A stretch of DNA of 64,000 nt from Planctomycetota bacterium (GCA_016235825.1 JACRIL010000102.1:751-64750), one strand, 5' to 3'. Counted from the first letter of the stretch, positions 42,354 through 50,489 are shown. Notes: generated by a model from the letters alone, not told the origin. Numbers and translations are program-made.

Positions 42354-42382
42354 TTGACAATAATGTACGAACTGAACATAAT
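42354..42382 (+). promoter_or_regulatory. sigma70-like promoter (TTGACA-17-CATAAT), implying a near-leaderless deoR transcript
   Basis: TTGACA at 42354..42359, CATAAT at 42377..42382. ATG of the regulator gene at 42391. Confidence 0.4.
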
Positions 42383-42390
42383 ATAACATT

Positions 42391-43170
42391 ATGCCCAGAA
42401 GCGCCGCACAAGCCGTCGCCCGCCGCCGCGAGCTGGTGAATATACTGGCCCGCAGGCAGAGCCTCAGCATCGCCGATGCGGCGGGCCGTTTCGGCGTCAA
42501 CGGGATGACGATCCGGCGGGATATGAAGATGCTTCAGGACTCCGGCGCGGTCCTGCGCTGCTACGGCGGGGCGGTGGCGGCGCAGAGGATCACGTTTGAA
42601 TTCGCCTTCGACGAGCGGCGCCGCAGCCGGCTGGCCGAGAAACGGCGGATCGGCAGGGCGGCAGCCGGGCTGATCGGGGACGGTCAGACCGCTTTTCTCG
42701 ACACGGGCACGACGACGCTGGAGGTCGCGCGGGCCATCGTGGCGCGAGGCATCGCCTGCCGGATAGCGACTAGCAGCCTCGTAATCGCCAGTGAGCTGTG
42801 GGGGCGAGAGCAGATCGAACTGGTTCTTTTGGGCGGACAGGTGCGGCGGGGCAGCCCCGACCTGGTAGGCCCGGGCACGGAATTGATGCTGGACAAGCTG
42901 AGCGCCGATTTCGCCTTTTTGGGCAGCGAAGGCCTGGACGTGGCCCGCGGCAGCTTTGCAGACGATCCTCTGGCGGCGCAGGTGGCAGGCCACATGGCGG
43001 CCAATGCGAAGAAAACGGTCGTGGTCGCCGATCACTCCAAGCTTGGCAAGGTCGGCTCGGTGCAATACCTGCCGGTCGGCGACATGGATGTGCTGGTTAC
43101 CGATAAGGCAGCCCCGGCAGAGATCGTCGCGGCCCTGCGACGAAACAAAGTAAAGGTTGTCGTAGTTTAA
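42391..43170 (+). CDS. DeoR/GlpR-family transcriptional regulator
   Basis: N-terminal HTH (…LSIADAAGRFGVNGMTIRRDM…) plus C-terminal sugar-phosphate-binding domain. Confidence 0.85.
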   Translation: MPRSAAQAVARRRELVNILARRQSLSIADAAGRFGVNGMTIRRDMKMLQDSGAVLRCYGGAVAAQRITFEFAFDERRRSRLAEKRRIGRAAAGLIGDGQTAFLDTGTTTLEVARAIVARGIACRIATSSLVIASELWGREQIELVLLGGQVRRGSPDLVGPGTELMLDKLSADFAFLGSEGLDVARGSFADDPLAAQVAGHMAANAKKTVVVADHSKLGKVGSVQYLPVGDMDVLVTDKAAPAEIVAALRRNKVKVVVV

Positions 43171-47951: not shown

Positions 47952-47954
47952 CGC

Positions 47955-50489
47955 ATGTATCTTGGCCTGGACCTGGGAACCACCAATATCAAGGCCCTGC
48001 TTGTGGATACGGGCGGCAAGGTGGCGGCGTCTTCGTCTGTCACCGTCGGCCTGAAAAACGGGCCCAACGGCGCGGTTGAGCAGGATATCGGGGAAATCCG
48101 GGCCGCGGTGCTGAAGGCTATTTGTTCGCTTGGCGATAAGGATCGGCTCGCCGCGGTTCGCGAGATCGGTGTTTCCAGCCAGGGCGGCTCGCTTCAGATA
48201 ACGGGTGCCAATGGAGCACCCATCGGCCCGGTGATCAGTTGGCTGGACGGCAGGGGGCAGCCTTATGACGAGGCCTTCAACATGGAACTGGGCCGCGAGT
48301 GGTTTGCCCGGCACGTCGGCCACGGCGGCAGCGACGTGGCGGTGGGCCAGTTGCTTCGGCTGCGGAAAGAGCGGCCGGAATTGCTCGCCAGGCCAAATCG
48401 GGTGGGCTTCGTCGGCGATTTTATTGTGGCGAGTCTGTGCGGTCGGGCCGCGCACGATGCCTCATCTCTGTCGATTGCCACGCTGCTTAACCCGCAATTG
48501 CGGGCTGCCGACCCGGATCTGTTGAAAAAACTGAAACTCGACGGGGATCAGTTGCCGGCGCTGTTGTCGCCGCGAGAATGCGCCAGCGTGCTCAGCGCCG
48601 AAGTCGCCCGCCAAACGCACCTGCCCGCCGGTACGCCGGTCTCGGCGGCGGTCCACGATCAATATGCCGCGGCCTTAGGTTCAGCGGCGGTCCACGCGGG
48701 CGACGTGATGGTCGGGACCGGGACCGCGTGGGTTCTGCTGGCGGTTACGGACCGGCTGATGCCGCCGGTGCTCGATTCGGCGTTTGTCTCACCCCATCCG
48801 GCCGAAGGCCTGTACGGACAGCTTGCCTCGCTGGGCAACGGCGGGGCCGCCTTGAGCTGGCTGGTGAAAATTTTAGAGTTGGACGAGACCGTTCCCGGCG
48901 CAATTGAAAATATGCTAAAAGCCGCGCCCGCTGGTTGCGACGGCCTGCGGTGCCGGCCGTTTCTGGCCTATTATCAGCCGGCCGGCCTGCCTGCGAACGT
49001 GAACGGCTGTTTCACCGGCCTCAAACTGTTCCACACGCGGGCGCATCTGGTCCGCGCAGTGGTGGAAGGCCTCGCGTGCGAGTTGGCACGGCATCTGCGT
49101 TTGCTGAACGCCGCCGGCCTGGAAACCCGCCGCCTGATCCTGTGCGGCGAGGCGGCCGCAGGCGAAGAGACCCCGCAAACAATCGCTGACATAACCGGCT
49201 TGCCGGTGGCGTGCGCGGCGGTGCGACAGACCAGCGCGTTCGGCGCCGCGGTGATCGCCCGGGGCCTGGCCGAACATTCCGAAAGCCTGGTTCAACTGGC
49301 CGAATCGATGGCATCGTCCCGCCGCATCTTTACGCCGGGCGACAATGCGGCTCGCTATCGGCAGATTATGGCCGAATACATTGCGTCTCTGCCTGCCGAA
49401 AAAGCGACGGAACCAGCGGCATCGGCCGGGCGCGTCCATCTGCATCACGTCTTCGACTACACCGACGTGGACCGTGCATTCTGGGCCGAGCATCTTGAGG
49501 ATTGGCTGCCGAAAAAGATCATCGACGTGCATATGCACGTCAGCGATCCGGCAAACAGGCGTGAGCCGATGACCGAAGAGGGACGTCGTCAGTATTGGGT
49601 GTCGGAGGTCTTGGAACCGATGGACGTTCGCAGCGCGGACCGCTGCCTGGCGACTGTTTTTCCCGGCCGGCAGGTCGAGTGTGTGGCGATGAGCATGCCC
49701 AGTCTGGAATTCGACATCGAGGCCGAGAATGAGTACGTCCGGACAAGCTGCCTGGAACGCGACTGGCATGGCCTGCTTATGCTTCGGCCGCAGATGAAGG
49801 CAGCCGACCTCGATGCCGCACTTGGCAAACCGGGAATCATCGGAGTAAAGCCATACTACACGCTTATCAGCCGCAATCCGCTCACCCGCGACGAGCACAT
49901 CGAGGCAAGCATCTTCGACTTTCTGCCACACCATGTCCTGGAAGTCCTCAACGCCCGCCGCGCATGGGTTACGCTGCACGTGCCCAAGGCCGGCCGGCTG
50001 GGCCACCCGGACAACATCCGCGAAATAAAGGAAATCCGCCGCAGGTATCCCCGCGTGATCCTGGTCGTCGCGCACCTGGGCCGCTGCTACACCGAGCCGC
50101 ACGCGCAGGAGGCCCTGCCGCTTCTGGCGGATGATCCGGGTCTTTACTTCGACAACTCGGCCGTGCTCAACCCCGCCGTCCATCGCCTGGCCCTGAAATG
50201 CCTCGGGCCGGACCGCATCCTTTACGGCAGTGACAATCCGGTGTTTTTCATGCGAGGCCGGAGGCAGTGGCAGGGAAAAACCTACATCAATCGGACCAAC
50301 TACCCGTTTTTCTTCAACAAGCGGCGGGAGCCTCCCGAGATCGAGGCCGGCTACACGCTTTATATGTATGAAGCGCTGCTCGCCGTCAAAATCGCCTGCC
50401 GCGACGCGGGGTTGACGGGCGATCAGGTGAATGCCATCTTCCACGACAACGCCGAGCGGCTTATCCGGCCCGCAAATAAAGGCGGGTGA
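47955..50489 (+). CDS. fusion protein: FGGY-family carbohydrate kinase (N) + amidohydrolase-2/TIM-barrel metal-dependent hydrolase (C)
   Basis: N-terminal MYLGLDLGTTNIKALLVD and later FGGY motifs to about residue 470. C-terminal ~340 aa with IIDVHMHV metal-binding start and conserved His/Asp of amidohydrolase-2 (…VAHLGRC…, …YGSDNP…). Single uninterrupted ORF. Confidence 0.75.
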   Translation: MYLGLDLGTTNIKALLVDTGGKVAASSSVTVGLKNGPNGAVEQDIGEIRAAVLKAICSLGDKDRLAAVREIGVSSQGGSLQITGANGAPIGPVISWLDGRGQPYDEAFNMELGREWFARHVGHGGSDVAVGQLLRLRKERPELLARPNRVGFVGDFIVASLCGRAAHDASSLSIATLLNPQLRAADPDLLKKLKLDGDQLPALLSPRECASVLSAEVARQTHLPAGTPVSAAVHDQYAAALGSAAVHAGDVMVGTGTAWVLLAVTDRLMPPVLDSAFVSPHPAEGLYGQLASLGNGGAALSWLVKILELDETVPGAIENMLKAAPAGCDGLRCRPFLAYYQPAGLPANVNGCFTGLKLFHTRAHLVRAVVEGLACELARHLRLLNAAGLETRRLILCGEAAAGEETPQTIADITGLPVACAAVRQTSAFGAAVIARGLAEHSESLVQLAESMASSRRIFTPGDNAARYRQIMAEYIASLPAEKATEPAASAGRVHLHHVFDYTDVDRAFWAEHLEDWLPKKIIDVHMHVSDPANRREPMTEEGRRQYWVSEVLEPMDVRSADRCLATVFPGRQVECVAMSMPSLEFDIEAENEYVRTSCLERDWHGLLMLRPQMKAADLDAALGKPGIIGVKPYYTLISRNPLTRDEHIEASIFDFLPHHVLEVLNARRAWVTLHVPKAGRLGHPDNIREIKEIRRRYPRVILVVAHLGRCYTEPHAQEALPLLADDPGLYFDNSAVLNPAVHRLALKCLGPDRILYGSDNPVFFMRGRRQWQGKTYINRTNYPFFFNKRREPPEIEAGYTLYMYEALLAVKIACRDAGLTGDQVNAIFHDNAERLIRPANKGG

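Follow-up and report, generated by a model that had tools for sequence, protein, structure and literature searches.

A six-gene operon preceded by a sigma-70-type promoter

The stretch of DNA analysed here (hereafter the window) comprises 64,000 nt from a Planctomycetota bacterium (GCA_016235825.1 JACRIL010000102.1:751-64750). Positions 42354-50489 hold one promoter-like site and six co-directional open reading frames (ORFs), at the coordinates that a first-pass annotation, made from the sequence alone, had given them (Table 1). The genes encode, in order, a DeoR-type regulator, a class I aldolase, a class III aminotransferase, a Gfo/Idh/MocA oxidoreductase, an AraA/FucI-family isomerase, and a protein in which an FGGY carbohydrate kinase is fused to an Amidohydro_2 hydrolase. 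This gene order, the six domain assignments, the operon structure, and control by DeoR had all been proposed in the first-pass annotation, and they are borne out by the ORF positions and by Pfam matches, every one of which exceeds its gathering score. The locus is a six-gene, repressor-controlled sugar-breakdown operon.

With start codons chosen by orthologue N-termini and ribosome-binding sites, the DeoR and aldolase genes are separated by a 31-nt spacer (taking ATG 43202 as the aldolase start), the aldolase and aminotransferase genes overlap by 32 nt, and the aminotransferase and oxidoreductase genes overlap by 1 nt (TGATG). The oxidoreductase-isomerase junction is either a 10-nt spacer, counted from ATG 46545, or an 11-nt overlap, counted from the TTG at 46524 with which the ORF opens; ATG 46545 is the likely start. 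The isomerase and kinase genes lie 3 nt apart, and a convergent STAS-domain gene closes the transcription unit.

The promoter is a strong one and the top-scoring site in the 9 kb scanned. The regulator ATG follows the -10 hexamer by 8 nt and has no Shine-Dalgarno sequence, and GAAC repeats situated between the -35 and -10 elements are a possible DeoR operator. In two orthologous loci (L101 and L135), the TTG of the -35 element, the CATAAT hexamer, the cGAAC...GAACATAAT stretch, and the 8-nt gap to the ATG are all retained, in contrast to the coding sequence, which has diverged. This conservation supports the earlier suggestion that the regulator mRNA is leaderless, or nearly so, and suggests that an operator overlaps the promoter. 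A third locus (L130) differs: its regulator gene lies downstream of another gene and is preceded by the ribosome-binding sequence GGAAGG.

Table 1. Features of the operon and of its flanks, in window coordinates
Feature	Position	Strand	Basis or remark
Promoter, sigma-70-type, TTGACA-17 nt-CATAAT	42354..42382	+	11/12 consensus match
DeoR-family repressor, 259 amino acids (aa)	42391..43170	+	HTH_DeoR 50.2 bits, DeoRC 148.9 bits
DhnA/DeoC-type (DeoC/LacD) class I aldolase, LsrF/MJ0400-like	43202..44011	+	DeoC 55.4 bits (cut-off 23.8)
Class III (GABA-AT-like) pyridoxal phosphate (PLP) aminotransferase, 470 aa	43980..45392	+	Pfam 325.2 bits, profile positions 8-403 of 403
Gfo/Idh/MocA NAD(P)-dependent sugar oxidoreductase, 380 aa	45392..46534	+	Pfam
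AraA/FucI-family aldose-ketose isomerase homologue	46545..47951	+	AraA_central and Arabinose_Iso_C
Fusion ORF, FGGY_N + FGGY_C + Amidohydro_2, 844 aa	47955-50489	+	Pfam; IDVHMHV at residues 523-529
FGGY carbohydrate kinase domain, residues 1 to ~480	47955..49394	+	Pfam
Fusion linker, ~20 residues, EKATEPAASAGRV...	49395..49454	+	Length varies among fused orthologues (alignment columns 484-527)
Amidohydro_2 TIM-barrel domain	49455..50489	+	DxHxH, K132, H175, H207, D260, R267-G-R-R loop (domain numbering)
STAS-domain gene, convergent	50508-50858	-	Closes transcription unit
Multi-PAS HisKA_3 histidine kinase (flanking)	38804-41002	+	
GT4 glycosyltransferase (flanking)	40989-42155	-	
TPR/PDZ protein (flanking)	52713-54383	+	

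The kinase-hydrolase fusion is genuine and recurrent

The reading frame of the last gene runs through the region near 49400, where a stop and restart would divide it into two genes, with no stop and no change of frame, and it is a single ORF. Its product is 100% identical to MBI5723903.1 (P0001), from an NCBI metagenome-assembled genome (MAG) record, and the identical 844-aa protein is present in a separate Logan assembly (L168). Seven further fused proteins, of 45-62% identity, have linkers that differ in length. The continuous ORF, the identical second assembly, and the fused orthologues rule out a sequencing or assembly artefact. One more kinase-amidohydrolase fusion occurs in a branch of 33% identity (P0283). 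A candidate additional fusion, an 850-aa ORF in L155, was rejected as an out-of-frame overlap, the kinase being encoded in another frame.

Hundreds of homologues stand alone, the kinases at about 484 aa (about 55% identity) and the amidohydrolases at about 358 aa (65-70% identity), and the two genes sit side by side in the loci examined, in many cases a few nucleotides apart or overlapping by a few. In rough neighbour-joining trees of the two domains, constructed without support values, fused proteins fall at no fewer than four separate places among the unfused pairs in both trees, which are broadly congruent. Thus, the fusion that had been singled out as unusual is real, but it represents the recurrent joining of a conserved gene pair, adjacent and unfused in most relatives, and not a new or unique architecture. 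Recurrent fusion suggests that the two enzymes act together, most simply in consecutive steps.

The kinase domain matches FGGY_N with 115.9 bits (cut-off 28.8) and FGGY_C with 64.1 bits (cut-off 27), and its matches in the PDB are XylB (2itm, 9e-32) and gluconate kinase (3gbt, 2.2e-31). Residues D6, G8, and T9 (of DLGTT) and H234-D235-Q236 are invariant across 17 fused and unfused homologues, and by analogy with XylB and GlpK, D235 would be the catalytic base. The domain reaches the cut-off of no NCBIfam kinase model compared: XylB (201.8 bits against a cut-off of 380), FucK (91.8 against 470.9), RhaB (40.9 against 528), GntK (121.5 against 648.6), or LsrK (88.2 against 528).

The hydrolase domain represents a new Amidohydro_2 subfamily

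The hydrolase domain carries the hallmarks of Amidohydro_2 (PF04909), a Pfam match and a (beta/alpha)8 barrel with HxH on strand 1, His on strands 5 and 6, and Asp on strand 8. Invariant within its subfamily are the DxHxH motif, a Lys ending strand 4, the His residues after strands 5 and 6, the Asp after strand 8, and an R-G-R-R loop; the invariant Lys, K132, lies within a predicted strand E128-133. In the binuclear hydrolase subtype of the superfamily, a carboxylated Lys at the end of strand 4 bridges two metals. Searching the PDB by sequence and by profile gave this domain no match better than E = 1e-4. Structurally closest to it, each with about 17% identity, are sugar-acid lactonases (4dlf, LigI-like), decarboxylases, and hydratases. 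Among the representatives of a library clustered at 50% identity, 721 match the hydrolase at E <=0.001 and 99 at E <=1e-30, and identity across orders is 65-70%. Judged by its sequence, the domain is a new, highly conserved Amidohydro_2 subfamily. The full metal-ligand pattern and the invariant Arg-rich loop fit hydrolysis of an anionic, phosphorylated substrate, and together with general knowledge of the superfamily they suggest that the domain is a metal hydrolase and that its substrate is anionic.

More remote relatives within the hydrolase family carry a fused class III aminotransferase (P0349 and P0336) or, in either order, a fused GNAT acetyltransferase (P0286 and P0366), and Gfo genes adjoin these distant fusions. 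In four loci of the main cluster (L094, L099, L135, and L155), a GNAT domain is fused to the oxidoreductase. Given that these fusion partners all handle amines or acyl groups, they tie the hydrolase to amine/acyl chemistry. The first-pass annotation had offered either deacylation or the opening of a lactone or ring as the hydrolase step; on the basis of the aminotransferase and GNAT fusions, deacylation fits better and lactone opening less well. The P0349 gene sits in a different cluster (L169, 1-12370), which contains Gfo, SDR, MFS transporter, second class III aminotransferase, peptidase M19, RraA-like, PhyH, and BNR_2 genes and neither isomerase nor kinase; the trio of hydrolase, aminotransferase, and oxidoreductase is thus reused in another context.

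A lactonase role is an alternative for this domain. The Gfo/Idh/MocA enzyme would oxidize a sugar, a sugar phosphate, or a uronic-type intermediate, giving a lactone for the Amidohydro_2 domain to open, the kinase would act directly before or after, and the aminotransferase would deal with a terminal amine or semialdehyde. The hydrolase gene frequently adjoins that of the window-type oxidoreductase and shares 4 nt with it (L009, L106, L107, L133, L137, L150, and L159), an SMP-30/gluconolactonase-like gene takes the hydrolase position in L011, and the kinase matches gluconate kinase no less well than XylB. However, this scheme gives no obvious reason for fusion to class III aminotransferases or GNAT, and the anomeric carbon of a ketose made by the isomerase cannot be oxidized to form a lactone, which leaves the near-universal isomerase without a clear place. 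Moreover, a structural identity of about 17% does not tell lactonases from decarboxylases and hydratases. We consider this dehydrogenase-lactonase scheme unlikely and favour deacylation as the role of the hydrolase.

A conserved core of five enzymes

Scanning of genome and metagenome contigs, together with contig look-ups, yielded about 90 loci with the hydrolase, every one of which belongs to an uncultured lineage (Planctomycetota, Pirellulales, Phycisphaerae, Verrucomicrobiota, or related bins). About 50 loci, from MAGs of these four groups, have collinear isomerase, kinase, and hydrolase genes. Neighbours were counted in the 26 loci with at least 6 kb upstream and at least 3 kb downstream of the hydrolase. 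A kinase is present in 25 of the 26, an isomerase in 24, and a class III aminotransferase and a Gfo/Idh/MocA oxidoreductase in 21 each (together in 20). Less frequent are an SGLT/YidK-like sodium:solute (SSF) symporter (9/26), a URO-D-like protein (7/26), the aldolase (6/26), DeoR (4/26), and a GNAT acetyltransferase (4/26, and none in the window); a tblastn search across the 64-kb window found no SSF transporter. The conserved core therefore consists of aminotransferase, oxidoreductase, isomerase, kinase, and hydrolase, and the aldolase and DeoR are optional. This reverses the emphasis of the first-pass annotation, which had built the pathway on isomerase, kinase, and aldolase and had regarded the dehydrogenase and aminotransferase as additions: the latter two belong to the core, and conservation is lowest for the aldolase and DeoR.

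Several aminotransferase subtypes and three oxidoreductase subtypes substitute for one another positionally across the loci, and in 8 of 9 loci the window-type aminotransferase and the aldolase occur together, mostly as adjacent or overlapping genes. Distant variants of about 30% identity preserve the association of genes. L015 has kinase, isomerase, aminotransferase, hydrolase, and symporter, and clostridial loci have DeoR, hydrolase, a KpsF-like SIS protein, YjbQ, isomerase, kinase, and an archaeal-type triose-phosphate isomerase.

The order isomerase, kinase, hydrolase mirrors araA-araB-araD, and it is conceivable that the aminotransferase and oxidoreductase make an ordinary aldose from an aminodeoxy sugar, which isomerase and kinase convert to a ketose 5-phosphate, and that the Amidohydro_2 domain is a metal-dependent epimerase/isomerase that replaces AraD and delivers an intermediate of the pentose phosphate pathway. 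The aldolase is absent from 20 of the 26 clusters, so the product may enter central metabolism directly, and the clostridial variant has a KpsF-like pentose-5-phosphate isomerase. We regard such an AraD analogue as decidedly unlikely: the ligand set with its invariant strand-4 Lys is typical of hydrolases, the aminotransferase and GNAT fusions are left unexplained, and we know of no Amidohydro_2 epimerase.

Another possibility is that the module is biosynthetic: an imported sugar, once isomerized and phosphorylated, would be made into an acetamido or imino sugar through oxidation by Gfo, transamination, and N-acetylation by GNAT. Oxidoreductase, aminotransferase, and acetyltransferase are the classical trio for building amino sugars, several loci encode fusions of GNAT with the oxidoreductase or the hydrolase, and class III aminotransferases are generally known to aminate ketose phosphates in iminosugar biosynthesis. 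Nonetheless, DeoR repressors and sugar symporters indicate catabolism, the low GNAT count and its absence from the window do not fit, and no nucleotidyltransferase or glycosyltransferase is consistently linked. A biosynthetic or conversion module is therefore very unlikely, and we favour a catabolic one.

Some loci carry additional genes. URO-D-like proteins recurrently adjoin the isomerase, kinase, and hydrolase genes, also in a Spirochaetota locus (L003 2071-7351; L008 5179-7110; L011 9016-10170; L012 7721-8992; L135 13396-15141; L146 8758-9969 and 14020-15537), an MttB-family methyltransferase is encoded in L146, and a radical-SAM protein in L003. These neighbours may reflect demethylation, in anaerobes, of a substrate that carries an N- or O-methyl group. 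L086 (1-6406) has aldolase, hydrolase, isomerase, and kinase, without an aminotransferase, directly behind GH42, GH36, AP_endonuc_2, and GH172 genes, and it is the sole locus in which glycoside hydrolases adjoin the module. The gene neighbours do not name the substrate: GH42, GH36, and GH172 occur only in L086 and BNR_4 in L007, and the URO-D-like, MttB, and radical-SAM genes occur in a minority of loci. In L001 (4547-5403), a nucleotidyltransferase/HepT-like toxin-antitoxin pair lies between two Gfo genes of the orthologous operon, and the flanking genes are intact. In L010 (4593-13780), from a long-read Planctomycetia MAG, the aminotransferase, oxidoreductase, and hydrolase are each split into 2-3 overlapping ORFs, probably through assembly indel errors rather than as pseudogenes.

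Regulator, aldolase, aminotransferase, oxidoreductase, and isomerase

Both an N-terminal HTH_DeoR domain and a C-terminal DeoRC sensor are present in the regulator, which places it in the DeoR family. It scores below the NCBIfam cut-offs for GlpR (174 bits against 300), AgaR (170.5 against 260), and FucR (90.8 against 259).

The aldolase ORF opens with a TTG at 43181, and the ATG at 43202, which has AGGAG 7 nt upstream, is the likely start; the orthologues begin MDGREIRL. The Lys of its GADSIKTF motif, kept in 12 orthologues, aligns with the Lys of GADIVKT in MJ0400 and of GAQIIKT in LsrF, which are the Schiff-base lysines of those enzymes. By this alignment the aldolase keeps the Schiff-base Lys and is a member of the class I DhnA-type family. 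As for the catalytic Tyr of MJ0400 and archaeal-type fructose-bisphosphate aldolases, the column of the Tyr in the MMYP motif of MJ0400 is occupied by Phe in every orthologue (E[Y/L]FP motif), and a Tyr one position before that Phe is seen in a single subgroup only. The enzyme matches LsrF at 5.5e-23 and is below the NCBIfam cut-offs for PRK07226 (149 bits against 241), LsrF (129.1 against 297), ADH_synth (123.9 against 299), and Fbpase1_Arch (104 against 430). The first-pass call of a class I DhnA-type aldolase thus stands, with the difference that the nearest enzymes are MJ0400 and LsrF, which act on diketo-phosphates, and not the fructose-bisphosphate or fuculose-phosphate aldolases.

The aminotransferase has relatives in the PDB at about 1e-77 to 1e-47, and its LGKGFGNGFP motif is kept in all 8 orthologues compared; by analogy with ArgD and OAT, the Lys of this motif would bind PLP. 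A second class III aminotransferase-like gene (22144-23313, 28% identity to that of the operon) and a second Gfo/Idh/MocA-like segment (19665-20252) lie about 20 kb upstream in the window. The isomerase matches AraA structures at 1.7e-21, with only the central and C-terminal AraA domains detected and no N-terminal AraA domain. Its scores of 101.3 bits for AraA (cut-off 622) and 44 bits for SftI, taken with this domain content, place it within the AraA/FucI fold family and not among AraA orthologues.

The top PDB matches of the oxidoreductase are levoglucosan dehydrogenase (6a3f, 2.5e-16) and scyllo-inositol/L-glucose dehydrogenase (5ya8). They raise the question of an iol-like route for an inositol, an aminocyclitol, or a uronate, in which Gfo would act as IolG, the isomerase as IolB, the kinase as IolC, the aldolase as IolJ, and DeoR as IolR, with the hydrolase opening the oxidized ring and the aminotransferase taking an inosamine or a semialdehyde product. 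From general knowledge, the parallel with the Bacillus subtilis iol operon holds role by role, including a DeoR-type regulator. The oxidoreductases are closest to inositol and levoglucosan dehydrogenases, SSF symporters are present in the loci, IolE-like AP_endonuc_2 genes occur in L086 and L146, and LigY provides C-C hydrolase chemistry inside Amidohydro_2. Against this, no iol equivalog, IolE included, is reached (IolG 49-118 bits against 355), the aldolase is optional, beta-alanine from malonate semialdehyde is not sensible as a catabolic end, and the kinase-hydrolase fusion would link non-consecutive steps. In our view, an iol-like route is very unlikely, and breakdown of an amino sugar is to be preferred.

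A proposed pathway for N-acyl aminodeoxy sugars

Our favoured reading, which we hold tentatively and rate somewhat short of an even chance, is that the operon serves the catabolism of an N-acyl aminodeoxy sugar, the amino group of which is probably not at C2. We infer the substrate, the order of the steps, the deacylase activity, and the directions in which the aminotransferase and oxidoreductase work. The sugar would be imported by a transporter encoded elsewhere, for which relatives use the SGLT/YidK-like sodium symporter, and the AraA-like isomerase would convert it to a ketose that the FGGY kinase would phosphorylate. The fused Amidohydro_2 domain would then remove the N-acyl group from the phosphorylated product, following the logic of NagK and then NagA, and the class III aminotransferase would turn the freed amine into a carbonyl. 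Thereafter the Gfo/Idh/MocA enzyme might reduce the carbonyl to give an ordinary ketose phosphate, or the LsrF/MJ0400-like class I aldolase might cleave a keto or diketo phosphate to dihydroxyacetone phosphate (DHAP) and a small aldehyde or acyl fragment, or both might occur. A phosphorylated intermediate would be the likely inducer of DeoR. The GNAT variants could acetylate free amino sugars first, a protect/deprotect logic like that of the arginine succinyltransferase (AST) and arginine pathways.

Several lines of argument lead to this proposal. Natural amino sugars are mostly N-acylated. Since the aminotransferase needs a free amine and the cluster offers no candidate deacylase other than the hydrolase, an N-deacylation role is suggested, and the set of partners (kinase, aminotransferase, and acetyltransferase) points to N-deacylation of a phosphorylated amino sugar. 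The aldolase, given its nearest relatives and its Schiff-base Lys, may cleave the keto product of the transamination, and its association with the window-type aminotransferase also speaks for the proposal. The DeoR regulators and SGLT-like symporter argue for uptake and catabolism.

Other observations weigh against the proposal. To our knowledge, no Amidohydro_2 N-deacetylase or N-deacylase has been described, and the nearest hydrolase structures, distant as they are, are lactonases, decarboxylases, and hydratases; the L011 gene in the usual hydrolase position favours a lactonase. That Lys-132 is a metal ligand is a prediction solely from where it lies in the sequence and in the predicted secondary structure. 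For GNAT and a deacetylase to share one pathway, a protect/deprotect or salvage argument is required, and the hydrolase-isomerase-kinase clusters of L086 and, within limited flanks, of L005/L006 lack an aminotransferase in the available sequence. Because an AraA-type isomerase requires a free C2 hydroxyl, the abundant 2-acetamido sugars are excluded as direct substrates, which leaves the rarer 3-, 4-, and 6-amino sugars. Finally, no cultured carrier of the cluster appears among the named matches.

A more specific version of the proposal is that the core set constitutes a widespread, undescribed pathway of the Planctomycetes-Verrucomicrobia-Chlamydiae (PVC) group for N-acyl aminodeoxy sugars, such as the 3- or 4-acetamido-(6-)deoxy sugars that bacterial surface glycans would supply. 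The hydrolase would be the first Amidohydro_2 N-deacylase and would act directly on the kinase product, and in the window-type variant the LsrF-like enzyme would cleave a transamination-derived diketo-phosphate to DHAP and an acyl or aldehyde fragment. We consider it doubtful that all of this holds.

In sediments and waters, Planctomycetes, Verrucomicrobia, and related bacteria play a major part in the degradation of complex glycans, and unassigned Gfo/Idh/MocA enzymes, TIM-barrel proteins, and kinases account for much of the sugar metabolism in these groups. The cluster described here is a compact, strongly conserved module in many uncultured lineages, and the recurrent fusions of its hydrolase to kinase, aminotransferase, and acetyltransferase give unusually direct hints about step order. 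Finding the substrate would give the new Amidohydro_2 subfamily a function and would explain the use of amino sugars by these bacteria without Nag/Aga enzymes. The operon is small enough for expression and in vitro testing, and the fusions open the module to direct tests. What has been found is still a metabolic operon, whose substrate can only be guessed.

Genomic surroundings

The histidine kinase, glycosyltransferase, STAS, and TPR/PDZ genes that flank the operon have no evident tie to it. Four 2-kb bins of the window (4001-6000, 10001-12000, 20001-22000, and 52001-54000) have a G+C content of 0.50-0.55, compared with about 0.62 elsewhere, and may be foreign or non-coding segments.

Comparison with known systems

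The first-pass annotation recognized no characterized pathway in this gene order, and the comparisons agree: every NCBIfam equivalog is well below its cut-off, and none of the operons used for comparison (fuc, rha, ara, aga/nag, iol, lsr, and sulfo-Embden-Meyerhof-Parnas) has this gene content. Literature searches found no description of the cluster. A known fuc, rha, or ara operon is rejected on equivalog scores, with no match to a fucose or rhamnose operon by FucK, RhaB, or FucR. The sulfoquinovose pathway, suggested by the 44-bit SftI match, was rejected for want of a sulfoquinovosidase, an exporter, or literature support, and the Luteolibacter L-glucose/L-galactose and Thermotoga inositol pathways were rejected on their differing enzyme sets.

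The N-acetylglucosamine/N-acetylgalactosamine systems (NagK/AgaK, NagA/AgaA, NagB/AgaS, AgaR, and tagatose-bisphosphate aldolase) share with the operon a DeoR-type repressor, AgaR being the second-best NCBIfam match of the regulator, and the succession of a kinase, an amidohydrolase-superfamily hydrolase acting on a sugar phosphate, amine removal, and an aldolase that yields DHAP. The operon differs in having an FGGY instead of a ROK kinase, an Amidohydro_2 instead of a NagA-type Amidohydro_1 hydrolase, a PLP aminotransferase and an oxidoreductase instead of a SIS/NagB deaminase, and a DhnA-type class I aldolase; it adds an AraA-like isomerase that a 2-acetamido sugar could not use, and no equivalog threshold is reached. 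The L-arabinose, L-fucose, and L-rhamnose operons likewise have an AraA/FucI-family isomerase followed by an FGGY kinase, and the window aldolase presumably yields DHAP. They lack the hydrolase, aminotransferase, and oxidoreductase that the window cluster adds, and the window aldolase is of the class I DhnA type, unlike the class II FucA and RhaD, and is dispensable in relatives.

In the Lsr system for autoinducer-2 (LsrK, LsrG, and LsrF), an XylB-like FGGY kinase is also paired with a DhnA-type enzyme. LsrF, a DhnA-type thiolase, cleaves a phosphorylated 1,3-diketone to yield DHAP, and like the window aldolase it has no Tyr at the column of the MJ0400 MMYP Tyr. The operon lacks LsrG, LsrR, and an Lsr ABC transporter, the LsrF and LsrK models are below cut-off, and nothing in the Lsr system corresponds to the isomerase, aminotransferase, oxidoreductase, or hydrolase. 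The AST (AstA-E) and ArgA/ArgD/ArgE pathways apply an acyltransferase, a class III aminotransferase, a dehydrogenase, and a deacylase to one substrate family, as would the GNAT, aminotransferase, oxidoreductase, and hydrolase of the cluster and their fusions; they differ in their amino-acid substrates, unrelated deacylases (AstE and M20), and lack of a sugar isomerase or kinase. From the COG3618/LigI-type lactonases (L-fucono-1,5-lactonase BmulJ_04915, PDB 4dlf), with which identity is only 17%, the window subfamily is set apart by its invariant strand-4 Lys, its Arg-rich loop, and its kinase, aminotransferase, and GNAT fusion partners. The operon is thus of a familiar general kind among sugar catabolic operons, and what is new is its combination of enzyme families and its Amidohydro_2 subfamily.

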